Both the position numbers and the translations under genes were made by a program. From IMG/VR virus record IMGVR_UViG_3300008255_000165, positions 1-51,675 of that record: a stretch of DNA of 51,675 nt; one strand, written 5' to 3'. The number at the start of each line of letters is the position of its first letter. Within the stretch, counting starts at the first letter, position 1. The DNA comes from a virus (taxonomy: Duplodnaviria > Caudoviricetes). Positions 20,111 through 51,511 of the stretch are shown here, one piece after another. A model generated the notes under the pieces. The model did not search any database. It worked only from the letters and a program-made list of their open reading frames with translations, and was not told where the DNA came from.

Positions 20111-21190
20111 TTACAGACTTCGGTCAATTACACCCATAGAAATCATGCGCGAATCCAGGCAAGCAAATCCCACTTCCTCCCATCCAAACACGCCCTGCTT
20201 CTGACGACGCAACAGTGTCGGGTCATCATAAGGCGTGAACTTGCGCTTGATGGGCATAACTAGCGAGTCGTTTACGCTGCGGTCGAAACCCCAGACCTGC
20301 GTCTCACCAGCCGTGGTGACTTCCCTATTAGCGTCAACGACGTTCGGGTTGTCGAGGTGGTAGTTCTTGAAGTTGGCGGAGCCATCAGCCGTGAACACGC
20401 CATAGCTGGAGGTGCTGCCATTGATGTTGAACTTGCCAACCGGACCGAGATGCGGAATCTCGTGCAGGTTAACGTTCCAGATGCTGCCCATACCAGCCGC
20501 TTGGAAAATCTCGCGGCGGGTAACAGGGTCGACGTCTGTGTCGGTCCACTCGCGGATATCAGCAGCATCCTCGGGGGATACATAGAGGTCCGTAAGGGTG
20601 CGGTCCGTACGACGCATACCAACAATCATCTTGTTCAAGAGCTCTTTCGAGAGGTAGCCAGCGCCAGCGGACCCACTGGAAACTTCGTACACGGGAGCGG
20701 AACGAGCACCGAGCAGGCCTGCGCCGCCGAAGTTCGTTGTACCGGCAGGAACGATAACCTTCCAACCACACTCTTCCTCGTACTCAGCAATCGCCTGAGC
20801 AATCTTGTTGATGGAACGACGCATAATATCTGTACGGCCTTCCTCGGCGTAAGAGAGCTTCCAGTCTGCAGCGGCGGAGATAGAGAACGTAGGTACGTAC
20901 ACGTCCTCGCCGACGCCTTCGATGAAGTTCTGAGCTACATAGCCCAAGCCAGGGAGTACCCACACGGGCACGTCAAAGTCATCAGCTACTGGGTAGAGAG
21001 CCTGGGCGCCGGGGCCGAGATTCTCAACCGAGAACATTTCGCGGATGACGGAGCGGAGCTTGATTTCCTGAAGAATAGGAAGCTCCAGAGCAGCAGCAAA
21101 CTCAGCTCGCTTAGCGTCGCCGACAGCGTTCATAGGCGCGGCAGCGGCTTCGCTAAACAGATTGGTTAGGTCTTTAAGAGTGATTTCCAT
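20111..21190 (-). CDS. Major capsid protein (HK97 fold), 359 aa
   Basis: AAGGAGG RBS before MEITL; strongly biased codons; position after scaffold and decoration genes; C-terminal GVFGWEEVGFACLD. Confidence 0.85.
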   Translation of the reverse strand: MEITLKDLTNLFSEAAAAPMNAVGDAKRAEFAAALELPILQEIKLRSVIREMFSVENLGPGAQALYPVADDFDVPVWVLPGLGYVAQNFIEGVGEDVYVPTFSISAAADWKLSYAEEGRTDIMRRSINKIAQAIAEYEEECGWKVIVPAGTTNFGGAGLLGARSAPVYEVSSGSAGAGYLSKELLNKMIVGMRRTDRTLTDLYVSPEDAADIREWTDTDVDPVTRREIFQAAGMGSIWNVNLHEIPHLGPVGKFNINGSTSSYGVFTADGSANFKNYHLDNPNVVDANREVTTAGETQVWGFDRSVNDSLVMPIKRKFTPYDDPTLLRRQKQGVFGWEEVGFACLDSRMISMGVIDRSL

Positions 21191-21204
21191 CGTACCCTCC
21201 TTGC

Positions 21205-21702
21205 TTATAGCAGGCACTTGATGAGCAAGCGCGTACCAGCGGCGGTCTGCGATGCTGTGAGTGTATTCAGAGCCATTGCCGCCGGCCCGTAAGCGTTGTC
21301 CGTGGTGGAGACTGAGTCAGCGTTTGTGTCAGAGAGCTTACCGTCGTTGTCACAATACAAAAGCGTACCGTAGGCAATACCGTCAGAAGCCTCGTCTACA
21401 TACTGGTCGGTCTCCCAGACACCCAAGGAAGCGACTGCAACAGCGTCGCCCTTGAAAGCATCCGAAGAACCCATGTCACTACGAAAACGAGCGTAAGAGG
21501 GCAAGTCAGTGTACTCGGCCTTAATCTTCTGCATCAAGAACCCAACGGGCGGGGTCGCGGTGCAGTCAGTGATAACGTCAACAGTCTTGTCGCCGACTAG
21601 CTTCATCAAGGTACCAGCGGCCAAAGGCAAGCTAGTAGCCGAATCTGCGTCGTGCACGAAAAACTGCATTTCAAGAACGGGTTCGCGCGGAATGAAAGTC
21701 AT
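21205..21702 (-). CDS. Capsid decoration/cement protein
   Basis: 165 aa, beta-rich; PVGFL...GVWETDQY...LLYCDNDGKL; immediately upstream of MCP. Confidence 0.7.
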   Translation of the reverse strand: MTFIPREPVLEMQFFVHDADSATSLPLAAGTLMKLVGDKTVDVITDCTATPPVGFLMQKIKAEYTDLPSYARFRSDMGSSDAFKGDAVAVASLGVWETDQYVDEASDGIAYGTLLYCDNDGKLSDTNADSVSTTDNAYGPAAMALNTLTASQTAAGTRLLIKCLL

Positions 21703-22446: not shown

Positions 22447-22532
22447 TGTTGAAACCTCCATGTATTCTTGTGTGTGCCCAACCAAGTAATCCTGTCAGAT
22501 TTATTCCTGGGCCTTTCCTGCCTTGCGGCACC

Positions 22533-35153: not shown

Positions 35154-35555
35154 TTACTTTGAGCCGCGCAAGCGGCGGAGTTTATCGACAAGGGCCTCTG
35201 CGTCAGTCTTCTCTTCGACGCGCTCCCCAAGGTCAGTGAAGCTTTTCTTCATATCACTGGAGTCTGTCATAGGGTTGACAAACACATCATCCTCAGCAGG
35301 AGTCGTAGGCCGATTGCTATTGTTGCTATTCGTGGAGGCAGCCTGGAAAGACTTGCCTTCCACCATGGAGCGTAACGAGTCTAACATGCTAAGCAACATC
35401 TCGTTCTGCTTAACTAGAAACTCGTTTTGCTCCTCTAGATACTTGGTGTGGGCTGCTTGGCTAGGGGGCCGGCCCTTATAATGGTTACGAGACAATATGA
35501 ATACCCCTAGGGAGACAACGGCCCCTGCCGCTGCTAGTAAAATGTACCAAAGCAC
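35154..35555 (-). CDS. N-terminally membrane-anchored coiled-coil protein
   Basis: TM helix at about residues 3-21, then coiled coil, disordered linker and amphipathic C-terminal helix. Confidence 0.75.
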   Translation of the reverse strand: MLWYILLAAAGAVVSLGVFILSRNHYKGRPPSQAAHTKYLEEQNEFLVKQNEMLLSMLDSLRSMVEGKSFQAASTNSNNSNRPTTPAEDDVFVNPMTDSSDMKKSFTDLGERVEEKTDAEALVDKLRRLRGSK

Positions 35556-35556
35556 T

Positions 35557-36303
35557 TTACGTAAGAACTACAGGGCCACCATGGGAAATATACACTGTAT
35601 TCTCTACATGGGCAGATAGACAGCCATCTAGTGAAACAATGTCCCATTCGCCCTGAGCTTTTGTACGCCAGTCCCCATCAAAAATCACAGGCTCTATAGC
35701 CAAGAACATACCAGGCTTAAGGAGAGCGCCAGTGCCTTTTCTACCGTAGTTTGGAATCCATGGAGGCTGGTGCAGCTCTTTTCCAACTGCGTGGCCGACG
35801 AACTCCCTAGACACCGTAAACCCCGCGGGCTCTACTATTAACTGTACAGCAAACGATAAGTCACCAATCCTAGCGCCAGGCTGAGCTGCCAACGTCGCAG
35901 CTGTAAGAGCACTGTAAGCAGTGTCTACTAAGCGCTTAGCCCTAAGGGAGGGTGGTTTCCCTACGAAAAACGACCTACATGCGTCTGTAATAGCGCCATT
36001 GTACTCTACCCCGCAATCGATACTGATAAGGTCCCCAACTGAGATTGTACGACTACTTGGCACACAATGAACAACTTGGTCGTTTATTGAGATACAGATA
36101 GCAGCAGGAAACCCGTCGTGCCCTAAAAATACGGGCCGAGCGCCGCAGGACTCTATGAACTTACGTACAACCCTATCAACATCCACTGTAGCTGCTCCAG
36201 GGGAGCACGCTGCCGTGCGGCCAAGCTCGAGCGCCTGCTTCAAAATAGAGGCGCTGGCGACCATATCACCTAACGGTGGGTATTTCGACATTTGACTTAC
36301 CAT
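35557..36303 (-). CDS. map: Methionine aminopeptidase type I
   Basis: VVHC, IDCG, ITDAC, VGHAVG..LH, AIEP, SAHVENT metal ligands intact. Confidence 0.93.
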   Translation of the reverse strand: MVSQMSKYPPLGDMVASASILKQALELGRTAACSPGAATVDVDRVVRKFIESCGARPVFLGHDGFPAAICISINDQVVHCVPSSRTISVGDLISIDCGVEYNGAITDACRSFFVGKPPSLRAKRLVDTAYSALTAATLAAQPGARIGDLSFAVQLIVEPAGFTVSREFVGHAVGKELHQPPWIPNYGRKGTGALLKPGMFLAIEPVIFDGDWRTKAQGEWDIVSLDGCLSAHVENTVYISHGGPVVLT

Positions 36304-36800: not shown

Positions 36801-37871
36801 CTAGAGCTGTAGTGCGTTGAGCGACGTGACTACGGCCACCACAAGGGCAACCAAAGGCTCCAACGCAGCAGGTGAAAATAAAGACAGGGGCGTGTGCAGC
36901 ATTCTAACTGGCACACTCAAAAGGCAGCAAGCTGACCCGCCATTTACAAGCCTCAAATCCTCGAGGTCTGTACCTGTAGTCTCCGCAGAATAGGGTGTAC
37001 AGTAATCTAAGCGTAATCTCGACGCAGCTAAGACCACAAACTCATGTAGGGCCTTATGAATGAAAGGGCCTTTGGGAATTACCAACCTAGTGAACGGGTG
37101 TGGAAGAGCTAGCTCATCGTCCTGGTCATCGAACGGGCCTACAGGGTGCACATCCAAAACGATATTTATTGCTGGGTCGACTTTCCGAGCTGCGCAAACA
37201 GCGGCGCTGCCCGTCGCTTCTTCAGCAGCTGTGAGCACCCCAAATACCTTAGCGGGTAAGTGAGTCTTATCCTTGGATAGCTCCTGCATTACCCTGGTCA
37301 AAACGTAGACGGACAGCTTATTGTCCGCTGCGCGAGCAAACATCTTCCCGCCAGGGGCTGGGATAATCTCAGTTTTCCACACCCCGTATGTCTCGATAGG
37401 ACAAAGCGCTTCGGCCTCCTGCAACGAAGAGACACCTAAGTCTACTACACACTCCTGAGTCTCTGGGACTTTAGTAATCTCCTCGTCGTCCAAAGCATGT
37501 ACTGGGGTCCTTAGAACTACTCCGGCAATCTTCTTACCTGTAGGTGTTGTGAGGCTTAGTACTGACCCGGGCAACGAAGCGGGGTCTATGTAACCGACTG
37601 GGGCAATAGTAGCGTACCCATCCTCTGTGTGTCCTGTAACAACTATACCTACCTCATCCTGGTGGGCTGATATCATTACGCGGGAGCCGTAGTTCCCTCC
37701 CTGCACAGAGGCAGACACATTACCCAGCACGTCCTTACCCACGTAGTCTGCTACCTCAGCTAGGGTGTCCATATAGAGATTACCGAGCTCGGCCTCATAG
37801 TACGTAGGAGACTCTGTGGCTAGAATAGCAGTGAGCAATTTTTTGTCGAGCTTATACCGTCTCTTATTCAT
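36801..37871 (-). CDS. M42-family aminopeptidase
   Basis: AHQDEVG, AADNK, AEEATG, VLDV, TGTD, PVRMLHTP. Confidence 0.88.
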   Translation of the reverse strand: MNKRRYKLDKKLLTAILATESPTYYEAELGNLYMDTLAEVADYVGKDVLGNVSASVQGGNYGSRVMISAHQDEVGIVVTGHTEDGYATIAPVGYIDPASLPGSVLSLTTPTGKKIAGVVLRTPVHALDDEEITKVPETQECVVDLGVSSLQEAEALCPIETYGVWKTEIIPAPGGKMFARAADNKLSVYVLTRVMQELSKDKTHLPAKVFGVLTAAEEATGSAAVCAARKVDPAINIVLDVHPVGPFDDQDDELALPHPFTRLVIPKGPFIHKALHEFVVLAASRLRLDYCTPYSAETTGTDLEDLRLVNGGSACCLLSVPVRMLHTPLSLFSPAALEPLVALVVAVVTSLNALQL

Positions 37872-38145: not shown

Positions 38146-38416
38146 CTAAAATAGCTCTCCCGTGTATAAACCTTGCTGCACACTGAGCGCACTCTAGCGT
38201 AGGGTTTAGAAGGCTTGCTAATGGACTAGCCTCGAATCCATCCGTGCAAACAGCCGCGCCGCTATCAAACTCCAACCAGCAAAGACCATTCTGGCGCATA
38301 TACAGCTCGTGCGGAGTTACACCTACCTCTAGGTCGCAACGTTTAAAGAGCTCCTTTACAACTTCCTCATCCACAGCCACTACGGCCTCCTGCCACCAGA
38401 GGCACCGACCGTGCAC
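38120..38416 (-). CDS. Hypothetical Cys-containing protein (start uncertain)
   Basis: ORF track. Confidence 0.55.
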   Translation of the reverse strand: MHGRCLWWQEAVVAVDEEVVKELFKRCDLEVGVTPHELYMRQNGLCWLEFDSGAAVCTDGFEASPLASLLNPTLECAQCAARFIHGRAILDEDSEAKQ

Positions 38417-39432
38417 TCATACAGAGCTATGACTAGCAAGTTCTCTGGCTTGGGCCCTGCAAAGGGCTGGCTAAACGCTTTCATAATCCTGTAGTGCATT
38501 GGGGACGGCCGGGACATGAGGCAACTGCGGAAGTACCCCAGGACCGACATCCTAATAGCCTCAGGGTGAAACGTAGTAGATTTAACTATACCCATAAGCT
38601 CTGGCCAGCCGGCTCCCTTGGATAGGGCACGGGCCATCTCAAGGCCTGCAGCGGTTTCCTCGGAAGCCACGGACAGCATCTCCTCAATATCCGCACTACT
38701 GATGTTCCCAGCGCTATCCCCAGACAAAGTCTGGAAAACCTGCTGCAAGCTCACCAGGGCTGCGCGAGCACTGCCGCCGGCGGCCTTCACTACCAGCTCT
38801 AACGCTTTATCTACCATACCACCAGTTGGGTTACCCTCTAGGCCCCAAACCTCGTGAACGAGCTCAGAAATCTCGCTGTCAGACAGCTTAGGGAACTTGT
38901 AAGTCTGGCACCGATTTCTAACAGTAGGAATAATCTTCTGCGGGTCCGTGCTGCATAGTATAGTGTAAACACCTTTAGGAGACTCTTCCAGCAGCTTTAA
39001 GAGCATCTGCTGTGCGTCTCTCGTCAAACTATGAGCCTCGTCCAAGATGTACACCTTGTTGTCGCAGCTCCAAGACCCAAGCGCCGCACTTTCCTTTAGA
39101 GCTCGAATATCATCAATGCCCCTAGTGTCCGCAGCGTTAAGCTCTACTACCCCAGGCTCCTTGCCATCCATAATACGCCTACAGGTGTCGCACCTAGCAC
39201 AAGGGTTTCCAGACTTACCTTTCTCTGTGCAGTTCAGCGCCATAGCTACAATACGCGCAGCTGTGGTTTTTCCGCACCCAGAATCCCCAGAAAAAAGAAA
39301 CGCCTGGGCTGGAGAGGCCATAGTAGCTATCTTGCGCAGGCTACTTACCGCCGCTTTTTGACCAACAACCTCATCGAACGTCTGGGGACGATATTTGTGG
39401 TAAAAATCCCCTGCACCTCTAGGTAAAACCAT
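38380..39432 (-). CDS. dnaX: DNA polymerase III gamma/tau-like clamp-loader ATPase
   Basis: KYRPQTF, GDSGCGKTT, C4 Zn site, ILDEAH, LLKLLEE, NRC arginine finger. Confidence 0.9.
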   Translation of the reverse strand: MVLPRGAGDFYHKYRPQTFDEVVGQKAAVSSLRKIATMASPAQAFLFSGDSGCGKTTAARIVAMALNCTEKGKSGNPCARCDTCRRIMDGKEPGVVELNAADTRGIDDIRALKESAALGSWSCDNKVYILDEAHSLTRDAQQMLLKLLEESPKGVYTILCSTDPQKIIPTVRNRCQTYKFPKLSDSEISELVHEVWGLEGNPTGGMVDKALELVVKAAGGSARAALVSLQQVFQTLSGDSAGNISSADIEEMLSVASEETAAGLEMARALSKGAGWPELMGIVKSTTFHPEAIRMSVLGYFRSCLMSRPSPMHYRIMKAFSQPFAGPKPENLLVIALYECTVGASGGRRP

Positions 39433-39849: not shown

Positions 39850-42003
39850 CTACGACCAGGTAAGCACAACTTCAGAACCAAACTTTTCCTTTAGGTCCTG
39901 GATGAGCAGCTGCTTGGTCTTCAGGTCTTTGATTCCGCTAACATACTGCAGCTTTTTAGTGGACTGATACTTAGCAAGTGCTGCCTTAGACGAGCCTCCC
40001 CAGTCTCCATCAACACCGTCGTTACGCTTACCATAGTTGCCGAGGTCGTAGCCCAAACGTACCAAGGCGTATTGCCAATCGAAAGACGTCCAGTTATCGG
40101 ATGTACGAGCGGGGTCTCTATTTAAAGCCTCGATAATACTGGTGATTGTGAAGCCTGGGCAGTTGTGTACAAACACACCAGCCAGCAGCCCAAAGTTACT
40201 GTAGGGTGCACAGTTAATCACATCATACACATCTTGCATTCCAGCGCGCTCAACTGCTACTACTTTATGATTATTGGGCCCTACCAGGCCGTCTATATAT
40301 CTAGAGGCAGTCTCAAAACGAGGTGTAAATCTACCAAACCTAGCACGAGCCTGCTCCCAGGCTGCCTCATCAGGCTCCTCACCACTATCGATAATGTAGT
40401 TATACACGTCTTCACACTTCTTAGTTAAACGCCGGTTGTTGGACTCCTTGACTGCGTTAGTCATCTTGTCCCTATACTCTGCTCTCTGCCAATTGGCTTC
40501 TACCTCCTTAGTTAGACGAGAGGTGTGCTTAGACCTAAACTCTTCGTCTTCCCATCGAGCACGAATACCGGCAGCACGCTTGCTCTTAGTAAGCTCAATA
40601 TCAGCGCTAGCTCTATGTGCGTCTAGTGTCTTTTTCCCCGCTGATGAAACAGCTTCTCTGTACGCTGGGTCGTCCCAACGCTTCTTTGCCGCGGCAGACG
40701 CTTTTCTACTGAACTCTGCAGCAAACTGTGGGTCCTTGAATCGCTCCTTTAAAGCTGCCTTGGCCTTCGCCTGAGCCTCTGGATTACAAAACAACTTAAT
40801 AGTCCTCGCTCTCGCTTCGGCTCTAAATACTGGATTCTCCCAGTTCTTTGACATATAATACGAACCCAAGGAAGCGTGCAAACCTATATGGTCTTTGTCG
40901 CCCATAATCACTAACTCACCAGGGGTGTTATTGGTTTTACATAGCGACCGGTGGTGAATAACCTGTTTCTGGCCAGCAGGCACAAACCCTTCCAAATCCA
41001 CTGAAGAGGCTACCATGCGATGAGTCATCCTATACTTCCTGGAATACGGGTCCATAACTACTTCGTAGCCGCCAGGCGTAACAGCTCTATATAAAGGCAT
41101 CAAGCTGGTACCAGCCTTTAGCTCTTCAGCAGAAGCGTAGCTTCCGTCTCTTAGCATAAAAAGGTGGTCAGTAGTACACGTAATACTCTTGCCATTATCA
41201 AGAGTAACCTTCACTACCTCTCGGTTTGTACCAGTCCGTTTAACGAGGCTTGGGCCACCTGGCACCACAGTACCGTCAGAGCTACAAGAGTAAAACCAAT
41301 GCTTTTCCCCAGACTCGGCCATTTCAGCCGCTGTCTTCTTTGTGCCATCTAGCAACGGAATCTCTGTATCTCCAGAAATGCATGCAGGTTTTCCAAAATC
41401 GTAGTGTCCAAATACTTGGTCGTACCCAAGCCCGAGGTTATCACATAGATAGTTAATAAGCTCGAGTAAGGAGTTCATTTGGGCTAATGTGGGCTCATTA
41501 GTGCCGTCACTGTACCCAGTCCCGTTGAAATGGCCCCCAAGAACGATGGATAGGTACATCAAGTTCTCATCACCAGGAATCTTAGAGGTCCCCTGTGACC
41601 AGGTAATATCCTCTAGGTCATTACACATCCAGATATCACCAGAGCGTCGGATGTAAAAGGTGTAGCATACAGAGGGAGCTCCAGGGCTCTTTGACCCGTT
41701 TGGAAAATAAGTCACGTGGTAGTTAGCTGTATTGACTGGGTTATCCCCCCCAAGCGTTTGGTGAACGCAGAGGCCCTTGATATCTGACAGCTTTCTACGC
41801 CCCCACTTAAGTTTTTTATGGCGAGGGATTTCTTGACGCTTATCTAGCAGCTTACTAGGACGACCGGACTCTGGCCAGTCAGAGACAGGGTTAGTACTCA
41901 TAGTCTTCTTAGCTCCAGTAAAAACTGCAGCGGTAGCCTTTGCGGCTAGCGCTACAGGTCTAAAGATGTACCTTGAAAGGGGAGAAGCGGACTTACTACT
42001 CAT
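39850..42003 (-). CDS. Endolysin: Amidase_2 N-acetylmuramoyl-L-alanine amidase plus C-terminal PG-binding domain, intein-containing (start 42003 or 41901)
   Basis: CVHQT, YTFYI..SG, PTLAQ, FGHYDFGKPA|CPG; WQYALVRLGY...GVDGDWG..SKAALAKYQ. Confidence 0.88.
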   Translation of the reverse strand: MSSKSASPLSRYIFRPVALAAKATAAVFTGAKKTMSTNPVSDWPESGRPSKLLDKRQEIPRHKKLKWGRRKLSDIKGLCVHQTLGGDNPVNTANYHVTYFPNGSKSPGAPSVCYTFYIRRSGDIWMCNDLEDITWSQGTSKIPGDENLMYLSIVLGGHFNGTGYSDGTNEPTLAQMNSLLELINYLCDNLGLGYDQVFGHYDFGKPACISGDTEIPLLDGTKKTAAEMAESGEKHWFYSCSSDGTVVPGGPSLVKRTGTNREVVKVTLDNGKSITCTTDHLFMLRDGSYASAEELKAGTSLMPLYRAVTPGGYEVVMDPYSRKYRMTHRMVASSVDLEGFVPAGQKQVIHHRSLCKTNNTPGELVIMGDKDHIGLHASLGSYYMSKNWENPVFRAEARARTIKLFCNPEAQAKAKAALKERFKDPQFAAEFSRKASAAAKKRWDDPAYREAVSSAGKKTLDAHRASADIELTKSKRAAGIRARWEDEEFRSKHTSRLTKEVEANWQRAEYRDKMTNAVKESNNRRLTKKCEDVYNYIIDSGEEPDEAAWEQARARFGRFTPRFETASRYIDGLVGPNNHKVVAVERAGMQDVYDVINCAPYSNFGLLAGVFVHNCPGFTITSIIEALNRDPARTSDNWTSFDWQYALVRLGYDLGNYGKRNDGVDGDWGGSSKAALAKYQSTKKLQYVSGIKDLKTKQLLIQDLKEKFGSEVVLTWS
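40162..41382 (-). mobile_element. Intein, 407 aa, with HNH homing endonuclease
   Basis: Block A CISGDTEIPLLDG, block B TTDHLF, HRMVA...IHH...KTNN...HIGLH, block F DVYDV, block G VFVHN followed by Cys+1. Confidence 0.95.
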
Positions 42004-42241
42004 CGCTAGAGGCCTCGGCAAGCGCCTTCATCAATCGGGCATACGCTGAAGTGGAATCGAAGTAAGGCCTCTCATAAGAAACTACCTGGGGCTCCTCTGA
42101 CCCATCAGCCAGGAAAAACAAGTAATGGTACCTCGTTTCCCCGGTATGGCCGGGCTCACCAGATGGGTAGTACCCGATTGGCATAACGAACGTTAAATGC
42201 TCACTAGAGCTATCGAGAAACGATAAATCCGTAAACAGCAT
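41996..42241 (-). CDS. Hypothetical protein
   Basis: AGGAG RBS. Confidence 0.65.
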   Translation of the reverse strand: MLFTDLSFLDSSSEHLTFVMPIGYYPSGEPGHTGETRYHYLFFLADGSEEPQVVSYERPYFDSTSAYARLMKALAEASSDE

Positions 42242-42634: not shown

Positions 42635-43963
42635 CTAGAAGTAGTGGTTCAAGGAAAGGCTAGCGTACACATCTGCAGTGGACGATGCTGTCTTAGCCAC
42701 CAAAGTTAAAGTGTTGCTTACACCATAGAATGAGCCAACTAAACCAAGCACAGAATTCAAAGACATAATCTGCGAAACCTTGTTCTGGTTGGTAGAGTCT
42801 ACGTAGCCTGAAGAGATTATATGACCAGAGCCTTCGGTATAGTCTACAGCTGTCGTAGACTTATCAATACCATCTACCTGCGTCCAAGTGAAGGGGCCGC
42901 TAAATGTACCACCAAGCACCAACCGCCACGAGACTAGTACTGAGCCTGCGTTGTGCAGCAAAACACTCTCCGGCATGGCATACGAACGTACATAGGCAGG
43001 ATTAAGCCTTACAGCTACTACATTCTTGTACGCGCTAGAGCCTATGGAGTTAGCAGCAAATCCAGTGTCCACGGCTATTGGTTTGGCAGGGTCCTCTTCA
43101 CCGCCCTCTCTAACTACGGAACTACAGATTTGCTTCAGTGAGCCACCTGCAGAGGCAGCGGGGGAAGAAATCTCATACCGACAAGGCAACGAGCCTGTAG
43201 ACATATACGTGGTAGTTTCCTTATTGGCGTGTAAAAATTCGTGTACCTGACACAGCCTACCGTCTATATCTAAATCTACGCGAACTCGGCCGGCACCTAA
43301 CCACTGCACATCTGTATGAAAGATGTTAGTTTTACTAGGGTCTAAAGTATATCCACTCGGTCCAGCCCCGTCAAGTCTATCAATAGTCCAAGCGGACTGG
43401 GCTACGCGAGTATCAACAATGGCCCCAGACGAGGAAGACCGCTTAACTAGGTATAGTTCAGAGGCAGAGGACTCTAGAAATATACCGTCTTTACCATCAA
43501 AGTACCCCAGCCTTTTTACAATCCCCGTCTCAGGGTGCATACTAGCGAAAGACTTTACAACACTCTGGGACTGACCAGCGCGATACAAAAAGTATTTGTA
43601 GGTTTGCCTAATAGCCACATCGCCGGCCGTGCCACTAACTGTCATATCAATCGTATTGGAATACGGGTCACGAGATACTGTTGAAGTACCAGATACGATA
43701 GTTTCCCACTCCAACGGCTGCATATCGTAAGTAAATGTAGAGCTATGTAGTACGTGGTTGTTGGAAACCCTCTGGCGGTGGAAAGCATCAACCTGAGGAC
43801 CATCTCGGAGGGTTGTTATGACAGTGCCTGTAACAGAGGTAACTGAGGGGCTTACAACGTTAACGTCAACAGGGTTGGTAACGGTATTCAAACGGTCTAA
43901 GGTATTCAGGGAGCCAGTCACAGTAGTGACCTGCCTGGGTATACCTTTGTAGTGGTCTCTCAT
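42635..43963 (-). CDS. Beta-rich lectin-like putative virion protein, 442 aa, N-terminus MRDHYKGIP
   Basis: GGAGG RBS; DAFHRQRVS, QWLGAGRVR; Thr/Val-rich stalk. Confidence 0.65.
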   Translation of the reverse strand: MRDHYKGIPRQVTTVTGSLNTLDRLNTVTNPVDVNVVSPSVTSVTGTVITTLRDGPQVDAFHRQRVSNNHVLHSSTFTYDMQPLEWETIVSGTSTVSRDPYSNTIDMTVSGTAGDVAIRQTYKYFLYRAGQSQSVVKSFASMHPETGIVKRLGYFDGKDGIFLESSASELYLVKRSSSSGAIVDTRVAQSAWTIDRLDGAGPSGYTLDPSKTNIFHTDVQWLGAGRVRVDLDIDGRLCQVHEFLHANKETTTYMSTGSLPCRYEISSPAASAGGSLKQICSSVVREGGEEDPAKPIAVDTGFAANSIGSSAYKNVVAVRLNPAYVRSYAMPESVLLHNAGSVLVSWRLVLGGTFSGPFTWTQVDGIDKSTTAVDYTEGSGHIISSGYVDSTNQNKVSQIMSLNSVLGLVGSFYGVSNTLTLVAKTASSTADVYASLSLNHYF

Positions 43964-43982
43964 CGCTGCCTCCAGCACAAAT

Positions 43983-44008
43983 AGGGGGCTGCGGAAACGC
44001 AGCCCCCT
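43983..44008 (-). terminator. Hairpin/attenuator inside the RDHY gene cluster
   Basis: 11-bp stem agggggctgcg/cgcagccccct followed by ATTTGT on the minus strand. Confidence 0.6.
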
Positions 44009-44041
44009 CCTGGTTATGCACTATTTTTTTGGGAGGGCTAG

Positions 44042-44395
44042 CTACACCTTAGGCGAACCTAAGCCAGGATTGAAGACTACGTAGCTAAACCTACGAACGT
44101 CTGCGTTGTCCTCACCAGAAAAATGCACAGTCTGGTTAGCAACATCAATCGAGTGAGCAATACCCTGAGTCTTCGTACCACTGGCAGGGCTAACCATAAC
44201 TAGTGAGTGCCAGCCGATACTGGGGTCTGTCATATTTGCATAACCAGCCGTAAGAACACCGCTGCCTACTAACACAGGGGTAAAGGCACTGGTACTATCC
44301 GCTGCCCCAGAAGGGCGCGGGTGCTGCACCTTACCGTCCTTGTCCATACGCATCACAAATTTCTTAGGTACACCTTGGTAGTTGTCACGTGACAT
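44042..44395 (-). CDS. 117-aa beta-rich protein, N-terminus MSRDNYQGVP
   Basis: AGGAG RBS; C-terminal small beta domain resembling fibre-tip domains. Confidence 0.7.
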   Translation of the reverse strand: MSRDNYQGVPKKFVMRMDKDGKVQHPRPSGAADSTSAFTPVLVGSGVLTAGYANMTDPSIGWHSLVMVSPASGTKTQGIAHSIDVANQTVHFSGEDNADVRRFSYVVFNPGLGSPKV

Positions 44396-44407
44396 GATAT
44401 GCTCCTA

Positions 44408-44551
44408 CTACGCTGTTTTGACCGTAGACATCTCAGTTGTGTTAGATACGGCGCCGGTTTCCGAATTGGCGTAGATATGAACCGCTCGGTTCGTCTTAAG
44501 TACAGGGGTGGTCAACGATTTTGGTAGATTGCTATAATGGTCTCTTGCCAT
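44408..44551 (-). CDS. 47-aa microprotein MARDHYSNLP... (not in ORF track)
   Basis: AGGAG RBS; exactly fills the gap; paralogue at 51371-51511. Confidence 0.8.
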   Translation of the reverse strand: MARDHYSNLPKSLTTPVLKTNRAVHIYANSETGAVSNTTEMSTVKTA

Positions 44552-44560
44552 AATATTCTC

Positions 44561-45322
44561 CTATTTGGGTAGGTACAGCTGTGATGATGTGTCTATATCG
44601 GGCTGGTTCTTCAATACTGATGTCAACGCCAGGCGAGCGTTTGAAAACGACTTAAGCTTTATTGGGACGGTATTATCCACCAAAGCGCTATCTAACCACA
44701 AGTCTGAGTGTGATTCTAGGTTAAATCCAATAGAAGAATCGGAAAGAACAAGAGCCCTCCCTGACACGAACCCCCCCCCTACTGAAAATAGGCCACCCCT
44801 AAGATGTAGGCAATTCAGCTCCAAGGAGCTGCTAGGCGTACAGAAGATGGTACCCTTAAGCGCTGTATTGGGGTGGAACACCTTGTTAGCGTTCGCGTCA
44901 AAATCTCCATCAACTGGTGACGGAGAAAACCTGGCACTGTCGTGGGGGAGGCTAAAACCGCGGCCGTACCTAAGCGGTCCCGCTGAGCCTCTAATGACTA
45001 GTCCCAGATGGGAGGAGCCCGTTCCGTTCAATCCTATACGCGTACTTATAGTACGAGAGTATCTAGAGCTGCCATAAAACTGGATAGCCGGTATAGTGAT
45101 GTCCTCAGTCCAGGTACCGTCACCAATATCTACCACTAAACCCACATTAGACTTAACAGGGAGCAACTCTATAGCACGCTCGATTGTTCGCACGGGGCTG
45201 TGCATAGACGAGCCATCGTTATGGTCAGCACCGTTCTTACGAACGTACACTGCACGCATACTCCTGGGGCCGCCAACCTTAGTAGCACTGGACCTATAGT
45301 GGTCCCGACCTAAACCAGGCAC
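44561..45322 (-). CDS. Pectin-lyase/beta-helix-like protein, N-terminus MPGLGRDHY
   Basis: VYVRKNGADHNDG...PVRTIERAI...IGDGTWTE is a typical beta-helix N-cap; GGAG RBS. Confidence 0.65.
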   Translation of the reverse strand: MPGLGRDHYRSSATKVGGPRSMRAVYVRKNGADHNDGSSMHSPVRTIERAIELLPVKSNVGLVVDIGDGTWTEDITIPAIQFYGSSRYSRTISTRIGLNGTGSSHLGLVIRGSAGPLRYGRGFSLPHDSARFSPSPVDGDFDANANKVFHPNTALKGTIFCTPSSSLELNCLHLRGGLFSVGGGFVSGRALVLSDSSIGFNLESHSDLWLDSALVDNTVPIKLKSFSNARLALTSVLKNQPDIDTSSQLYLPK

Positions 45323-45398
45323 GAAAACTCCGAAGTGTGGATTTTTATTTGGTAGGCTAACGGCCTTTCCCTGCCGCTTAAAACTCGGCTTCTCTTAT

Positions 45399-45564
45399 GG
45401 CCTGGGAAAATTGCCCAGGCCGACATTAATTGGTCAGCAACCCAACTGAAAGGCGTCCCTAAAAGCGTGTTCCTCAGTTGATGACCTATGACCGACCGAA
45501 GTCGGGTCTCTAAACTAGAAGACGCGAAGGCATGTGCACTGCCTGGAACACCGCCCCCTCTAGT
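45399..45564 (-). ncRNA. Candidate structured leader RNA
   Basis: Five adjacent stems, a C(UUCG)G loop and 7-bp loop-loop complementarity. Confidence 0.45.
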
Positions 45565-45664
45565 GGGTCTATACAAATGAATAGTAAAACAATGGCTTTA
45601 TGGTAAGGCATTGCTTAAAAAAATTGCTTTGCCTTAAAAACTGGGCCTTCCCAGAAACTGCCTA

Positions 45665-46849
45665 CTAAAGCTTTTTTCTTGCGGGGCGTTTGCCGCCGTT
45701 GCTTGCGAGGAAATCCTTTTCCCAGACGAAAACTACGCTATACCCTGCTTTACGTAGCTGCTCGAGACGCCGAATCGTCTTTCGGTACAACGTGCCGTAC
45801 ACTGCCCTACTTGTCGGATTTATATCATTAAAATCATATACTTCGGGATTCCCGTGCCAATAGTCACCCAGAAACTCATAAACAGTATTCGAGGCTGGGT
45901 CAAACCCATCAACGTGAATTGGCCGTTTTTTACCTGGCAGCCTTATCGAAACCTCTCGATGCTCTGCAGGAACCCCCAACGAGTCAAGCCATCTTTGTGA
46001 TGCTGCAGAAACGGGGCCCCCGAAGCATTGTGGGCAACTGCTGCCTCTGGACCTATTATTTACTGTTGACTGCCACTCATGCCCTTCAGCACAAACCCAC
46101 CAAACCTTCCTACGTGAGTATGGCAGTACACCAGCAGCGCTAATCTGATTTCTTGTCGGATGCCACTCAGAGGCCAACTCTGGATTAACAGTGGCAAGAC
46201 ACGTCTCTGGAAGCACCTTTTTCCCAACACAGTAGGGGCAGTGGGTACCGGTGAGCCTATCTCTTACGCTAGTTCTCCACCTGTGGCCCTTACTACAGAG
46301 CCACCACACCTTTTTATTGGACCCCGCGGTAACATCCTCGGGCGACAGCTTGCCATTTTTTGTCGGGTGCCACTCTGAGACCAAATCTGGTCTAACAGTC
46401 GAGAGGCAATTATCCTGACAGGCCTTCTGACCAGAGCAGTATGGGCAGCCGTCACCAGCTGACCTATCATTAATAGTGGACTGCCACTCGTGGCCCTTAC
46501 CACAAACCCACCAAACTTTCTTATTGGAGCCCTTGGTTACATCGGCCGGCGCCAAGTCACCATTTTTTGTCGGATGCCACTCGCCCGCGAGTTCGGGATT
46601 TACAGTCGAAAGGCAGTTATCTTGGCAAGCACGCGCGTGCTTTGAGCAATAAGGACAGCCACTATTATTACCTGCCCTGTTGTAAACTGCTGCCTGCCAG
46701 GTATGGCCGAGGCCGCACTGCCACCAAACCTTCTTATTGGAGCCCTTAGTAATGGTATAAGGTGTTAGCGCTAAACCCAGGTTTTTTTGGGAGTGCCACT
46801 CTTTAGCCAGCTCCGGGTGGGTAGAGGCTAAACAACTGTCTACATCCAC
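45665..46849 (-). CDS. Zn-ribbon-repeat endonuclease, copy 2
   Basis: Four repeats; VDGFD...YEFLGDYWHG...VWE. Confidence 0.85.
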   Translation of the reverse strand: MDVDSCLASTHPELAKEWHSQKNLGLALTPYTITKGSNKKVWWQCGLGHTWQAAVYNRAGNNSGCPYCSKHARACQDNCLSTVNPELAGEWHPTKNGDLAPADVTKGSNKKVWWVCGKGHEWQSTINDRSAGDGCPYCSGQKACQDNCLSTVRPDLVSEWHPTKNGKLSPEDVTAGSNKKVWWLCSKGHRWRTSVRDRLTGTHCPYCVGKKVLPETCLATVNPELASEWHPTRNQISAAGVLPYSRRKVWWVCAEGHEWQSTVNNRSRGSSCPQCFGGPVSAASQRWLDSLGVPAEHREVSIRLPGKKRPIHVDGFDPASNTVYEFLGDYWHGNPEVYDFNDINPTSRAVYGTLYRKTIRRLEQLRKAGYSVVFVWEKDFLASNGGKRPARKKL

Positions 46850-46868
46850 GAATGGAGCGTGACGGTTC

Positions 46869-47549
46869 CTAGTAATGGCCTACCTCCCACGGGACGGGAA
46901 CGTACCCGATGGAACGGCTGACCGACCACCTAGTATACACCGCTTTCGGCAGGCGCTGGGTTTTTTTCTGACGGGCTGCACGCTCCCTTTTCGGCGCTCT
47001 TACCTCTCGGTACCCATCCGTAGCGACATAATGCGTCATCTCGCGCATAGCCCGCGTGACCTTGAGCAAACCACACGCGGAAAGGGCCGTCACGTGGCGC
47101 GATACCGTCCGGCCGGAAAACCCGGTGACTTCCTCCAGGCGGCTGACCGCAATTTCCGACCCCATCGCGTCCCACGACATCGTCTTGATAGCCACGTAGA
47201 TAACCCTGGCTTGAGCGGAGAGGCGCCTGTTCATGATAACGATACGAGGAATGACCACGAATTTGCCAGGCGTACAGCGTACCCTGTGACCTCTGGGAAG
47301 GTAGTACGCCATCCCCCTCGGCCCCTTATGGTATGTCCTTACTAGGCCTAGCCTTCTTAGTTCCCCTACTAGCTTTGATACTTTGTCTACATGAAACCCT
47401 GTCAATGTAGATAGGTATGCTCTAGTAACGTTGAATGCTCTTCCCCCTATTGCTCTTGCTGATAGGACCCAGTAAAGCAGTCTAGCTGAGGGTGATTGTA
47501 TTGTATCTGCAGTCACTAAATCTTTTGGGAAGAACACTACATCCGACAT
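46869..47549 (-). CDS. Tandem winged-HTH DNA-binding protein (HTH_36/replication-initiator-like)
   Basis: Two repeats: SPSARLLY...LSTLTG...V..L...GLV and SAQARVIY...LEEVTG..RTV.R....L...GLL. Confidence 0.75.
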   Translation of the reverse strand: MSDVVFFPKDLVTADTIQSPSARLLYWVLSARAIGGRAFNVTRAYLSTLTGFHVDKVSKLVGELRRLGLVRTYHKGPRGMAYYLPRGHRVRCTPGKFVVIPRIVIMNRRLSAQARVIYVAIKTMSWDAMGSEIAVSRLEEVTGFSGRTVSRHVTALSACGLLKVTRAMREMTHYVATDGYREVRAPKRERAARQKKTQRLPKAVYTRWSVSRSIGYVPVPWEVGHY

Positions 47550-47590
47550 TATAAAGCTCCAAAGCTACGGGAGGCCCGCAATAAAAAATA

Positions 47591-48115
47591 CTACCTAAAT
47601 GCTGACCTGAGCCACTCGGTGACTTCCTTTGACATGAGATACCTGGTACCGTCGATTGTCAACGTCTCGCCGTGCTCGACGTCGAGACCCAAAGTGATTT
47701 CGTAAATCTTCTTAGGCCGTGCCTGCAGAGTTGGCGCATCAGAGATACCCTCAAGCCACCCATCCATAAGGTTGAAGTCGGCTTGGGTTACACCACGACA
47801 GTGGTCCTTCAAAACATCATCTGCAGAGTCGCCAGGAAGGCCTGCAGTTCCTTGCTCGTCTCTAGAATTGTGGTAAAAGTCGAAGGGTCCTTCGACGTCG
47901 CGCCAGGAGAGCTTCTTGTACGCCCGCTTCTTCTTGGCCTCTTGCTGTGCTGCTTCCTCAGTGGCTTTCGCCTGCTCTTTCAGTACTGCTCCTCGCAGCT
48001 GCTTCTTGTAGAAGTTTTCACACGTACTACACATCAAAGTCTCCTTTGTGGATTGTCCTACTAGGCTGGTTACTGCTCCACACTTTGTACAAAATCCTGC
48101 GACTACACTACCCAT
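47591..48115 (-). CDS. Hypothetical Zn-finger protein
   Basis: CTKC...CSTC. Confidence 0.65.
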   Translation of the reverse strand: MGSVVAGFCTKCGAVTSLVGQSTKETLMCSTCENFYKKQLRGAVLKEQAKATEEAAQQEAKKKRAYKKLSWRDVEGPFDFYHNSRDEQGTAGLPGDSADDVLKDHCRGVTQADFNLMDGWLEGISDAPTLQARPKKIYEITLGLDVEHGETLTIDGTRYLMSKEVTEWLRSAFR

Positions 48116-48130
48116 CGAAAAAAATCCTTT

Positions 48131-48304
48131 CTAGTGGCACTCGCGCCGCTTGCACTCGTCTACCAGCGAGGGGGCCGGCTTGGAAATGTCGTCAGAAGGT
48201 GCCTTCGTGTAGCTCACTACTGCAATGACGACACACACAGTATAAGCCAAAGCTATAGCTAGTGCCCACCAAAAAGAGTACGTGTGCGGAACTTTCTGAC
48301 TCAT
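48131..48304 (-). CDS. 57-aa single-TM peptide (not in ORF track)
   Basis: GGAGG RBS; MSQKVPHTYSFWWALAIALAYTVCVVIAVVSY... Confidence 0.7.
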   Translation of the reverse strand: MSQKVPHTYSFWWALAIALAYTVCVVIAVVSYTKAPSDDISKPAPSLVDECKRRECH

Positions 48305-48313
48305 GTTACCTCC

Positions 48314-48397
48314 CTACTCTACGATTTTACGTGCGAGCAGCCAACCGACCAGTGAGCTTACAGCCACAACTATAAGTAAAGATACAGCATTTAGCAT
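48314..48397 (-). CDS. 27-aa single-TM peptide (not in ORF track)
   Basis: GGAG RBS; MLNAVSLLIVVAVSSLVGWLLARKIVE. Confidence 0.6.
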   Translation of the reverse strand: MLNAVSLLIVVAVSSLVGWLLARKIVE

Positions 48398-48567
48398 TTT
48401 ACCACTCCAATAAGAAACATAGCGACCAGCAGAGCTGTAAAGATTGCCCACCCTGGGACTCTCCGCCACCAGGCGGAGCTATTCTGTGCTGGCGCTAGGT
48501 AGGGACTTTGTGACGGCGGGCCTGGGGGCCTTAGCGCTCGTCCAGATAATTCACGTCTTGTTGCCAT
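48391..48567 (-). CDS. 58-aa peptide with C-terminal TM helix (not in ORF track)
   Basis: MATRRELSG...WWRRVPGWAIFTALLVAMFLIGVVKC; coupled to neighbours. Confidence 0.6.
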   Translation of the reverse strand: MATRRELSGRALRPPGPPSQSPYLAPAQNSSAWWRRVPGWAIFTALLVAMFLIGVVKC

Positions 48568-48568
48568 G

Positions 48569-48661
48569 CTACCTTGAAATCCTTTCTGCGACTAGGTAGA
48601 CAGCTAGGCCTCCTACTGCCGCCAAAGAAAAAACAGATAAAATCACACCTAAAAATGACAT
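48569..48661 (-). CDS. 30-aa single-TM peptide (not in ORF track)
   Basis: TAATG coupling; MSFLGVILSVFSLAAVGGLAVYLVAERISR. Confidence 0.6.
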   Translation of the reverse strand: MSFLGVILSVFSLAAVGGLAVYLVAERISR

Positions 48662-49110
48662 TATTTGCACCCCTGCAGAGACCTCGCTAACTTTTTCAGC
48701 TTGCGCGCCAACTTTTTTGCGTCTTCTGCAGATAATTCTGCTACAGAAAGCCCTTTTCCGGGCGTATCAAGAAAAATCTGCACAAGCCCATCTTTTTCTC
48801 TACAGTCATAATTTAATGAGGTCTTCCAGCCTGTTAGTTCCAAAGGCTCTGCCTTCCAGTCTGTGAACTCTAGTTCGGACGGAGACTTCCACGGGCCCAT
48901 AATCTTCTCGTACGTGGAGGGGGCTATAGGGGAACAGGTTGGACAGTACGTCCAACTCATACTCACCCCCGTAGTACCGCACCCGGTGCTGTCTGACGCC
49001 TTAAGCTGGCCCCCATTGGGATATACTGTGGCCAGGGAGCCCCCGCACATAGGGCAAGTCGGCGCTGATGTAGTCTCGATTACACGCATGTAGTTAGTCT
49101 CATTTTCCAT
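48661..49110 (-). CDS. Hypothetical Zn-finger protein
   Basis: CPMC...CPTC. Confidence 0.65.
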   Translation of the reverse strand: MENETNYMRVIETTSAPTCPMCGGSLATVYPNGGQLKASDSTGCGTTGVSMSWTYCPTCSPIAPSTYEKIMGPWKSPSELEFTDWKAEPLELTGWKTSLNYDCREKDGLVQIFLDTPGKGLSVAELSAEDAKKLARKLKKLARSLQGCK

Positions 49111-49118
49111 CGATACAC

Positions 49119-49349
49119 CTATGAGTAATGCGGCTTCCTTGAAGATAGCTTACCATTAAGCCGCTTCGCAGTAGCCATACTAGCGTACTTGGCTGGTACG
49201 TACACAAAAGATACCAGCTCTCCGCAAGCCATACAAACCCCGCGGGCCACCAGAGCGCCGGCGACATCTTCGAAGAGCTCCTTCTCTATAGAGGAAGCAG
49301 CTCCGCAGGTCGGACATTTACAGAGTACGTGCAGCTCGGTGTTGTTCAT
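49119..49349 (-). CDS. Small Zn-ribbon protein, 76 aa
   Basis: AGGAGG RBS before MNNTE; CPTC...CMAC. Confidence 0.7.
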   Translation of the reverse strand: MNNTELHVLCKCPTCGAASSIEKELFEDVAGALVARGVCMACGELVSFVYVPAKYASMATAKRLNGKLSSRKPHYS

Positions 49350-49649
49350 GATACCTCCTATAGAATGGTATAAATCCCCTAACGTGTAGCCCAGGCCCGC
49401 CGAAAAAACCACCCGAGGTTTGTCCAACGATACATAAGTACAACGTACTATGTATATCCAGCCGCCGGTAACTACCGAAGCGGCCGTGGTTATATGCCGT
49501 ACAACCGAGGCGTACCTTCTAGGTACGCAGCCTGCGTCGCCTCGCAAGCTCGGCTAGCAGGGACCCGCTCAGGTTATAAAAGCGGGGTAGGACGCTGGCG
49601 GTGCTTTTATATCATACATGTAAGAGCACCTAGTAACGAGGAACCCCCT

Positions 49650-50798
49650 ATGTCGAAAATCACTAGACCGAAGCTTCCAGAGACGCGCCCAGAACTAGTG
49701 TCCGAGTGGCATCCAACAAAAAATCAGGGTTTAGCGGTCAGTACACTAACCACCTTTTCCAACAAAAGGGCCTGGTGGCTCTGTGAAAAAGGACATGAGT
49801 GGGAAGCACGCATCGCAGACCGGTCTACTGGGCAGGGGTGCCCCTACTGCTCGGGCCAGCGCGCGTGCCACGATAACTGTCTTGCCACTGTTAACTCGAA
49901 GCTAGCGAAGCAATGGCACCCTACTAAAAACGGAAGTCTTGGGCCATCTAAGGTTATGCCGGGCTCTGGTAAAAAGGTCTGGTGGCAGTGCCCGGAGGGC
50001 CACGAGTGGAAAGCTACTATTAACAGCCGGTCTTGGGGCAAGGGGTGCCCCTACTGCGCAGGTCGGCTCTCTGTAAGAGACACAAGGCTTTCCACCACCA
50101 ACCAGGAACTAGTGTCCGAGTGGCATCCAACTAAAAACGATGACCTGACTCCAGAAAACGTAACTACTAGCTCTAACAGGAGGGTCTGGTGGCGCTGTGC
50201 TAATGGGCACGAGTGGGTAGCTTACGTATTTAATAGAGCTAGGGGGTATGGGTGTCCTTACTGCTCAGGTGCCTTGGCCACCCCGGAAAACTGCTTTGCT
50301 ACGCTTAACTCCCACCTAGTACCGGAATGGCATCCCACTAAAAACGGCGATTTGACTCCATACATGGTTACTAGAGCCTCTCGCAGGGAGGTTTGGTGGG
50401 TCTGTGCCGCCGGCCACGAGTGGAAAGCTAGAATTTCCAGCAGAGCCCGCGGTCATGGGTGCCACACCTGCATGACAGGTCCTGTTTCTGAAGTCTCCCA
50501 ACGCTGGTTAGACTCCTTAGGTGTTCCACCTGAGTATCGCGAGGTTCCAGTTAAACTGGCTGGTAGAGAGCGTCCCTTTAGAGTTGACGGTTTTGACCCA
50601 GAGACCCTCACAGTGTATGAGTTTCTCGGGGATTTTTGGCATGGGAACCCTGCTGTACATAACCCAGACGACACTAACACTGTAAATAAAAAGACGTTCG
50701 GGGCTCTATATAAGAAAACCATCCGGCGGCTAGAGCTACTTCGCAAAGGTGGTTATAACGTGGTGTTCATCTGGGAGTACGACTTTAGGAATCAATAA
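49650..50798 (+). CDS. Zn-ribbon-repeat endonuclease, copy 3 (only credible + strand gene)
   Basis: GAGG RBS before MSKIT; four repeats; VDGFD...YEFLGDFWHG...IWE. Confidence 0.85.
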   Translation: MSKITRPKLPETRPELVSEWHPTKNQGLAVSTLTTFSNKRAWWLCEKGHEWEARIADRSTGQGCPYCSGQRACHDNCLATVNSKLAKQWHPTKNGSLGPSKVMPGSGKKVWWQCPEGHEWKATINSRSWGKGCPYCAGRLSVRDTRLSTTNQELVSEWHPTKNDDLTPENVTTSSNRRVWWRCANGHEWVAYVFNRARGYGCPYCSGALATPENCFATLNSHLVPEWHPTKNGDLTPYMVTRASRREVWWVCAAGHEWKARISSRARGHGCHTCMTGPVSEVSQRWLDSLGVPPEYREVPVKLAGRERPFRVDGFDPETLTVYEFLGDFWHGNPAVHNPDDTNTVNKKTFGALYKKTIRRLELLRKGGYNVVFIWEYDFRNQ

Positions 50799-50804
50799 CC
50801 TCCC

Positions 50805-51371
50805 CTACGCGGCGAGGATTTCTGCTTTTGCCATAGCGGAAAATTTCGGAATTCCCCACTTAGCAGGCCACGGAAATAAATAGCTTACGGAGCAGACAGC
50901 CGCCCCGAAGGCCTCGGCTCTATTGATGATTGCTCTAGGGTCGACGCTAATTTTGCGCATGAGCTCTTCGCGGATTGCAAATCTTTCTGCGTCTAATTCA
51001 AGCCAAAATCGTACATAAGCAAGACCAGCGAACGGCGGAAGTAGGGCATACAGTATTAGGTAGAGGGGCACCCCGAGCATGGGGTGAATCCCGAACCCGC
51101 ACCACCTAAACTGTGTAGTATGCCTTGTCTCATGAAAAAGTGTAGTGAGCACGTCGTAGTACGACCAGGATTCGTCGTAGAACTGAAAGTTTCCTGTGGT
51201 AAACGCGAAGTGCTTGGTGAACGTCTCTTTATCAGCGATGTGAAGCAGCACCACCACCCACGTAATAAACTTTGCAAACCAGTTGTCCTTAGTCATCAGC
51301 ACCACGGTCTTATCGACCGTGCGTGCCAACGCCTGCAGCTCGTCTTTACGCGCTACCCAGGAATCTTCCAT
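50805..51371 (-). CDS. Membrane-associated HEXXH protein (putative Zn protease)
   Basis: FHETRH...ELDAE; hydrophobic segments. Confidence 0.6.
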   Translation of the reverse strand: MEDSWVARKDELQALARTVDKTVVLMTKDNWFAKFITWVVVLLHIADKETFTKHFAFTTGNFQFYDESWSYYDVLTTLFHETRHTTQFRWCGFGIHPMLGVPLYLILYALLPPFAGLAYVRFWLELDAERFAIREELMRKISVDPRAIINRAEAFGAAVCSVSYLFPWPAKWGIPKFSAMAKAEILAA

Positions 51372-51511
51372 TAGACCGACTTAACAGCAGACATTTCTGC
51401 TAGGTCCCAGATGTTGCCGTCGGCGTAAATGTGCAGAACGTACTTCGTAGCCGTAGCTGCAACGGTGTGGGGGTAGTTATCAGGACGTCCTTGATAATGG
51501 TCTCTTGCCAT
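51371..51511 (-). CDS. 46-aa microprotein MARDHYQGRP...
   Basis: GGAGG RBS before ATG at 51511 (the ORF track over-extends it); paralogue of 44408-44551. Confidence 0.8.
   Translation of the reverse strand: MARDHYQGRPDNYPHTVAATATKYVLHIYADGNIWDLAEMSAVKSV

Follow-up and report, generated by a model that had tools for sequence, protein, structure and literature searches.

The DNA analysed here is the 51,675-nucleotide IMG/VR virus record IMGVR_UViG_3300008255_000165 (positions 1 to 51,675; hereafter the window), part of a large, uncultured tailed phage from groundwater. A preliminary description, made from the letters alone, drew attention to five genes whose products share an N-terminal RD(H/N)Y tag and proposed that it is an address label, either plugging interchangeable adhesin or enzyme cargos into one capsid or tail socket or routing them for packaging. 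All five starts lie at the positions given there, on the minus strand:

42635..43963, minus strand: 442-amino-acid (aa) protein, apparently the tag and a linker grafted onto a PHROG 1645 virion structural protein body
44042..44395, minus strand: 117-aa tagged protein, with a tag of ~30 residues, a linker and a predicted beta-sandwich of the tailspike C-terminal type
44408..44551, minus strand: 47-codon collapsed spike gene, keeping the first ~33 and last ~15 codons of a gene for a 466-aa beta-helix protein
44561..45322, minus strand: 253-aa short right-handed beta-helix protein with DUF1565/Pel9A-like neighbours and RDHY at residues 6-9
51371..51511, minus strand: 46-codon collapsed spike gene, keeping ~32 codons of the front and ~14-15 of the end; in sequencing run X2 the allele at this place has 465 codons

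The motif is real and well above chance. A pattern search over the whole window, as had been suggested, finds RD[HN]Y five times in the six reading frames, each time at a gene start and 1-5 codons past the start codon, against a mean of 0.6 and a maximum of three occurrences anywhere in 100 mononucleotide shuffles. A GGAG-type Shine-Dalgarno core stands upstream of every one of the five starts, the 5' DNA including this ribosome-binding site is alike among the tagged genes, and the best 5 of the 6292 pairs of Shine-Dalgarno-led N-termini in the window are all tag pairs. The consensus first put forward, RD[HN]YxGxP, is too long: its first four positions are present in all five genes and GxP in only three, the gene at 44551 reading SNLP and that at 45322 RSSA. 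Synonymous codons differ among the genes as claimed, but the RDHY codons of the 44551 and 51511 genes are identical. Nor are the five proteins all otherwise dissimilar: the 46-aa and 47-aa products are homologous over their whole length (40% identity in 48 alignment columns; E 5e-7 with a set of 19 proteins), and three of the five genes belong to one beta-helix family.

Searches beyond the window identify RD[HN]Y as the front of an element of about 25 residues, M[ST]RD[HSN]Y[KR]G[VI]PK-x8-DG-x4-L. In this consensus R, D and Y are fixed by the filter that selected the rows, while G and P played no part in the selection and are nevertheless present in 31/32 and 32/32 rows, respectively. A profile of 34 columns, built from 17 N-termini and run against 1.84 billion representatives, gave 77 matches. 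In 31 of these the motif is at the start; seven are training sequences or a near copy and 24 are new. The 31 tagged proteins range from 34 to 737 aa, and the bodies of the 28 longer than 70 aa form 14 blastp components, several of which are probably one small-sandwich family; two, with 34 and 38 aa, seem to consist of the tag alone, and the contigs that carry them reach 49 and 175 kb. The remaining 46 matches lack the motif as a regular expression. Of these, P0075 is a variant at the N-terminus and the other 45 are internal matches, mostly repeated; eight of the 45 were inspected and the class was treated as noise. At the DNA level the pattern M[AS]RD[HN]YxGxP matched six viral contigs, in all six as a gene of ~100 aa in the head operon of a related phage, whereas the pattern matches in metagenomes and genomes were mixed: 15 of 34 metagenome loci are Shine-Dalgarno-led tagged genes (two being the present phage and several redundant) and 19 are chance-like, and one of 20 genome matches is a tagged gene, the other 19 again being chance-like. 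R, D, Y, G and P are kept even though the third positions of their codons vary and the bodies can be as little as 25% identical; a second phage (locus L081) has two tandem tagged genes, for 479 and 492 aa, that are 25% alike overall.

The search found the tag in no cultured phage and in no PDB sequence. Searches with the 46-aa protein were blank, as were scans of viral contigs with the 442-, 466- and 253-aa proteins; a search with the alignment A1 among longer proteins was blank as well, falsely so, given the later matches of the 34-column profile. In the literature the peptide RDHYKG was not found and the listed papers containing RDHY were unrelated, but supplements could hold such sequences. 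The earlier remark that no family of this kind has been described is thus correct for this motif within the searches made but not for the principle, which the available text of PMC6872550 and PMC13352976 describes.

Two other motifs may be mentioned beside the tag. A membrane-anchored-looking protein (35154-35555, minus strand), encoded ahead of an actin-like gene, has RNHYKGRP directly after its hydrophobic segment. The octapeptide is identical in the close relative G001 (L026 7156-7563) and was not seen in the positional counterparts of the relatives G003 and G004; it is either a tag-like motif at a non-terminal place or chance. In G003, upstream of the volactin (actin-homologue) gene, three genes with bodies of 1656, 204 and 300 aa (L035 14148-19118; L036 564-1178 and 1197-2099) carry another N-terminal motif, T[SA]IR[GA][AS]Q[IL], possibly a parallel tag system.

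Where the simplest tagged gene stands is best appreciated from the head region of the window, in which the terminase, portal, protease-like, scaffold-like, cement-like and major capsid genes run from 27899 to 20111; a tape-measure-sized gene occupies the left end of the window. The part that matters here comprises:

20111..21217, minus strand: major capsid protein (phrog_2522; 25% identity to phage G gp27), a candidate socket
21205..21702, minus strand: cement/decoration-like protein (Phage_cement_2, E 2.4e-4, under the cut-off), a candidate socket
21736-22485: scaffold-like gene
22486..22532, minus strand: empty slot between the prohead protease and scaffold-like genes, where relatives carry the small tagged gene
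22533-23789: prohead protease

Against 50,697 phage records the capsid protein has a sole match, gp27 of Bacillus phage G at 25%, and it matches 17 uncultured loci at 55-84% identity. The 117-aa protein of the window is the orthologue of a tagged protein of ~100 aa that relatives encode in their head operon. Among 11 distinct small tagged proteins of relatives, the gene has the protease upstream and the scaffold downstream in 8/8 loci showing both sides, all outside the window's own lineage, and it adjoins the expected single neighbour in 3/3 truncated loci. In the window and in G001 the small tagged gene has moved and the head slot is empty. The two form a branch of their own in the capsid tree, in which seven head-slot RDHY/RDSY loci group weakly (94/92, unstarred). 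In an alignment of eight of the small proteins, 7 of the 12 invariant columns fall within the first 11 residues. MPQ-type proteins that occupy the same slot in other relatives were considered as homologues of the RDHY proteins and rejected (hhalign probability 1.1%), the analogy being positional only. No gene start with RD[HN]Y was found in the G001 tail module, whose fibre-like genes have another N-terminus in common. As a separate observation, Ig-bearing or fibre-like genes of the tail region (L029 804-3473 in G001; L039 18636 and L040 905 and 3349 in G003) share the N-terminus xEN[IV]xxxxxN, which may be a homologous domain instead of a short tag.

All of the bodies to which a fold could be assigned are surface-type modules, that is, of spike or adhesin type. 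The model of the 117-aa protein (mean predicted local distance difference test, pLDDT, 68.5) is below 50 over residues 1-10 and has a predicted beta-hairpin at residues 16-24; its sandwich resembles the C-terminal sandwiches of Pam1, K64-1 S2-4 and K1 lyase in the PDB (E 3e-3 and weaker) and K1-lyase_C proteins in BFVD (E 6.5e-5), and an orthologue matches Pfam K1-lyase_C under the cut-off. The body of the 442-aa protein, at residues 55-437, belongs to PHROG 1645 ("virion structural protein"; E 2.9e-80). Homologues occur in 174 phage records, including cyanophage S-RIM8, HMO-2011 and Rctr197k, and match from about residue 52 on; the three that were inspected have unrelated N-termini without the tag, and G001 has no 442-aa gene at this site. 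The tag of this protein is, as judged from these comparisons, a lineage-specific graft on a PHROG 1645 body. The 253-aa protein, which has orthologous C-termini in the loci L026 and L069, and a 466-aa protein of L069 both have beta-helix neighbours in the Atlas at a template-modelling score of about 0.6, and Beta_helix matches at E<=0.01 were obtained for 10 of 27 scanned tagged proteins, five at or above the cut-off. A single-sequence fold of the 466-aa protein (pLDDT 32) was not used. Concerning the arrangement of L069, a start reading MSRDNY at 1752-1884 leads, in a different frame, into the middle part of a 253-aa-type gene, and L069 and L026 begin with identical 123 bases, suggesting a chimera or a rearrangement within the tagged array.

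Much of what can be said about the behaviour of these genes comes from a comparison with run X2, of another study, which has a depth of about 200, is ~99% identical to the window and differs from it mostly in the tagged genes. The relevant sites are:

43983..44008, minus strand: terminator-like hairpin between the 117-aa and 442-aa genes (a consensus match only)
44123..44219, minus strand: strain-variable beta-sandwich segment, with 28 substitutions and a compensated 1-base shift in X2
44454..44456, minus strand: deletion junction, CGG, found on both sides of 1257 extra bases in X2
44771..44779, minus strand: G9 tract within the gene for the 253-aa protein; no other homopolymer in the window reaches 8 bases

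The 28 substitutions are packed into 97 bases of the sandwich of the 117-aa protein; for the other 9 kb about a dozen are listed. The two ~46-aa peptides of the preliminary description turn out to be not small proteins in their own right but in-frame deletion remnants of ~466-aa spikes, which are long in this nearly identical strain. In one X2 contig the 1257 extra bases at 44454-44456 would restore 466 codons; in another, 125 bases of the 46-aa gene are replaced by 1382, giving 465 codons. The tagged 466-aa protein of L069 is encoded downstream of the 253-aa orthologue, in synteny with the 47-codon gene; its first 35 residues match both stubs and its last 15 match the 47-aa product at 14/15, and P0080 is a second 466-aa allele. 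Since the flanks of the 47-codon gene are unchanged relative to X2, this deletion is recent, and since the 46-codon gene stems from another allele, the two deletions are separate events. Both join a Gly at residue 32-33 to a Gly 15 residues before the end, at CGGC.

The short forms are real DNA. One contig of run X1 spans both junctions, with no loose end listed there; a 216-base contig of run X5, from another study and at a depth of 2.1, crosses the 46-codon junction without a difference; and ENA has a variant of the 47-aa product that differs by one substitution. X1 and contig L063 may be the window's own source. Runs X4, X6 and X8 gave no piece crossing either junction among the pieces listed, and the RNA run X3 consists of contigs only and so cannot show transcription. 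A site-specific recombinase acting at the breakpoints is not supported, as only CGG(C) is shared and no repeat longer than 6 bases joins the breakpoint regions of L069; literature on in-frame deletion of tailspikes by microhomology in phages was not found. The stop of the 46-codon gene overlaps the start of the next gene, and translational coupling would explain the kept frame but not the breakpoints. For the retention of both gene ends the candidates are a stub that plugs the socket and arms for recombination. The third beta-helix gene, for the 253-aa protein, varies at its poly-G tract, which is G8 in L063 and the X1 contig (a frameshift, leaving 201 aa); X2 has G6, which keeps the frame. 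Either phase variation or an assembly error may account for this. Finally, the four clustered genes share a frame and have TAG as their stop codon, but a polyprotein made by TAG read-through was rejected: each has its own ribosome-binding site, the terminator-like hairpin precedes the last gene, a gene of 3382 codons can be read with no TAG in it, and in L026 the corresponding junction does not keep the frame.

In view of the distribution of the tag, the cargo folds and the swapping between strains, a portable N-terminal label on interchangeable surface cargos is well supported, and this part of the original proposal stands; its packaging branch, modelled on T4, suits the cargos poorly. Our preferred reading is that the tag is a docking peptide that mounts unrelated spike-type bodies on a common virion socket, probably on the capsid, and we put its probability at roughly 0.5. 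On the sequence evidence, external docking at some site of the virion is quite likely, and for the capsid in particular the chances are about even. The capsid is favoured because the basic tagged gene is in the head operon and because the G001 tail module has no tagged start and fibre-like genes with another N-terminus; we infer the location of the socket from gene position only. By analogy, the bodies may be trimeric spikes.

Several observations weigh against this reading. Beta-helix spikes are most often carried on the tail, and for several bodies the weak PHROG match is to a "tail protein" (phrog_4577; E 1.7e-4 for the 253-aa protein). In the window's lineage and in L072/L081, the tagged genes are found away from the head operon. 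Of the five genes in the window, four match the 25-residue form over the first ~9 residues only (profile scores 2.6-16.5 bits). The 253-aa gene has the weakest tag, with no GxP, and the Atlas gene call puts its start beyond the motif, at residue 22; the GGAG of the GTG at 45322 is nevertheless the better spaced. RD[HN]Y is absent from the records of G002, G003, G004 (97% complete) and G005, the last having RDSY, and the head-slot homologue of a sister lineage (L013; hhalign 96.7%) keeps IPKK..DG..L without RDHY, so the tetrapeptide is confined to its lineage. As for the long alleles in X2, 30 bases are visible at each end of the inserts, reading like L069, and the open frames are deduced from length and ends.

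The same evidence could be accommodated by a docking peptide whose socket is on the neck, the tail or a branching adapter, the head-operon position reflecting late transcription only. This is a real if lesser possibility: the cargo folds are tailspike folds, the phrog_4577 matches point to the tail, and the long tagged genes are outside the head operon. However, in most relatives the only tagged gene seen is the one in the head operon, and the G001 tail module lacks a tagged start. Moreover, no Pfam family for an anchor receptor-binding protein (RBP) or a T4gp10-like branching domain was found in 24 window proteins (the window being without the tail-tip region) or in 12 G001 tail-module proteins, a weak blank.

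It is rather unlikely that the segment has no outside partner at all and is either a cap for trimerisation or folding or just a stretch of 5' sequence passed on by duplication together with a strong ribosome-binding site. The three beta-helix genes do have their start in common by descent, the 5' DNA is similar among the genes, and the hairpin predicted at residues 16-24 would suit a cap. Yet R, D, Y, G and P are fixed despite varying third codon positions and bodies down to 25% identity, and the tag also heads bodies without detectable kinship.

Still more doubtful is a capsid-targeting sequence for packaging into the prohead core and ejection. T4 internal proteins are diverse and, according to the available text of PMC3012670, share a targeting sequence only, and the simplest tagged gene here lies between the prohead protease and the scaffold. 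All fold-assigned bodies, however, are extracellular spike or adhesin types, of up to 737 aa. Cleavage by T4 gp21 is Glu-specific; if the protease of this phage cuts likewise, an acidic site would be expected behind the tag, where no acidic residue is conserved.

Chance or assembly artefacts can practically be dismissed: metagenome assemblies can collapse repeats, X1 and L063 may not be independent of the window, and 19/34 and 19/20 pattern matches were chance-like, but the shuffle control, the family of 31, the X1 and X5 contigs across the junctions and the ENA variant all argue otherwise.

If the tag is a docking peptide for a capsid socket, it would, being probably unstructured on its own (pLDDT <50 over residues 1-10), become ordered in a pocket of the major capsid or cement protein, and new cargos would arise when the ribosome-binding site and tag are copied onto a foreign body. 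In the population of the window, in-frame microhomology deletion has removed the ~420-codon middles of two beta-helix spikes, and the gene ends, both retained, would act as homology arms for regaining a body. With two genes collapsed and the third varying at its poly-G tract, this strain likely displays fewer beta-helix spikes, and the best reading is that the population has shed, or is shedding, them. A more elaborate version seems to us speculative: the capsid socket would accept folded spikes of 100-740 aa by way of one tag of 10-25 residues, genes would shrink, with breakpoints that hardly vary, to stubs of tag plus C-terminus, which would either plug the socket or stay in place as two-armed landing pads, the poly-G tract would switch the third spike, and the population would thus strip and re-arm its head while keeping the slots. 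Were the socket on the capsid, this would be a natural plug-and-play display with a very short tag and a wide range of cargos. The tag also flags unannotated candidate virion-surface proteins across a lineage without a cultured member, and the strain pair shows spike loss under way, in two separate in-frame collapses with almost the same breakpoints.

Among the other genes of the window are a volactin-family actin homologue (34155-35141, minus strand; PF25216, E 3.7e-65), kept in G001, G003 and G004, and an endolysin (Amidase_2 and PG_binding_1; 39850-42021, minus strand) that is split by an intein lacking in the G001 orthologue. Three genes with DUF4379 zinc-finger repeats and a putative nuclease end are related to one another (45665-46849, minus; 49494-50798, plus; 32114-33277, minus); two of them are near tagged loci. 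Genes resembling by eye an M42-type peptidase, a methionine aminopeptidase and a clamp-loader subunit lie at 36801-37871, 35557-36303 and 38380-39432 (minus strand). Beyond the right end of the window, the upstream DNA in L063 (1-9836) switches to opposite-strand genes, repeated intergenic motifs and a long low-complexity stretch; in these 9.8 kb no further tagged gene was found. One tagged 3.2-kb contig (L119) was placed in a Bacteroidia bin, too weak a basis for naming a host.

Three known systems invite comparison. T4 internal proteins are diverse and exchangeable and have a common N-terminal capsid targeting sequence (PMC3012670, as far as its available text goes). As there, an N-terminal label heads diverse proteins and is linked to head assembly genes; unlike there, where the cargos are small, internal and ejected, these are surface-type folds of up to 737 aa with no evident cleavage motif. 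On the crAss001 head, the excerpt of PMC10172136 describes more than one fibre type, a gp21 trimer and a gp29 dimer in two different pockets, with residues 1-38 of gp21 binding a capsid hexon pocket, and it mentions no shared motif; further background on head fibres is in the accessible portions of PMC7602432 and PMC12796354. Like gp21, the present proteins have a candidate short N-terminal anchor and a gene in the head module (in the 8/8 full-context loci of relatives, not in the window's own lineage), but here one motif heads many bodies, and the phage lineage is different, with no homology shown.

The closest parallel is with the secondary RBPs of docking systems such as those of K1-5 and KP32. 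The available text of PMC6872550 describes conserved N-terminal docking peptides on such RBPs (7- and 11-mers in K1-5/K1E/SP6, a heptapeptide in KP34, and PhiK64-1), which are lineage-specific and as short as 7 residues, and proposes truncated tag-bearing genes as temporary docking sites through which a spike can be regained; in KP32, according to the portion of PMC13352976 at hand, a conserved 29-aa peptide is required for incorporation of RBP2. In both cases, as here, a short lineage-specific N-terminal peptide heads non-homologous, strain-variable bodies of the beta-helix or tailspike type, and there are truncated tag-bearing genes. No sequence match to these peptides was found, however; the basic tagged gene here is in the head operon, the cargos include non-enzymatic modules, and the short forms keep both gene ends in frame instead of the N-terminus alone. 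Docking peptides as such are therefore already known, and what is new is this motif, its link to the head operon and the two-ended collapse, which supplies a concrete case for the idea that a truncated RBP can serve as a docking site.

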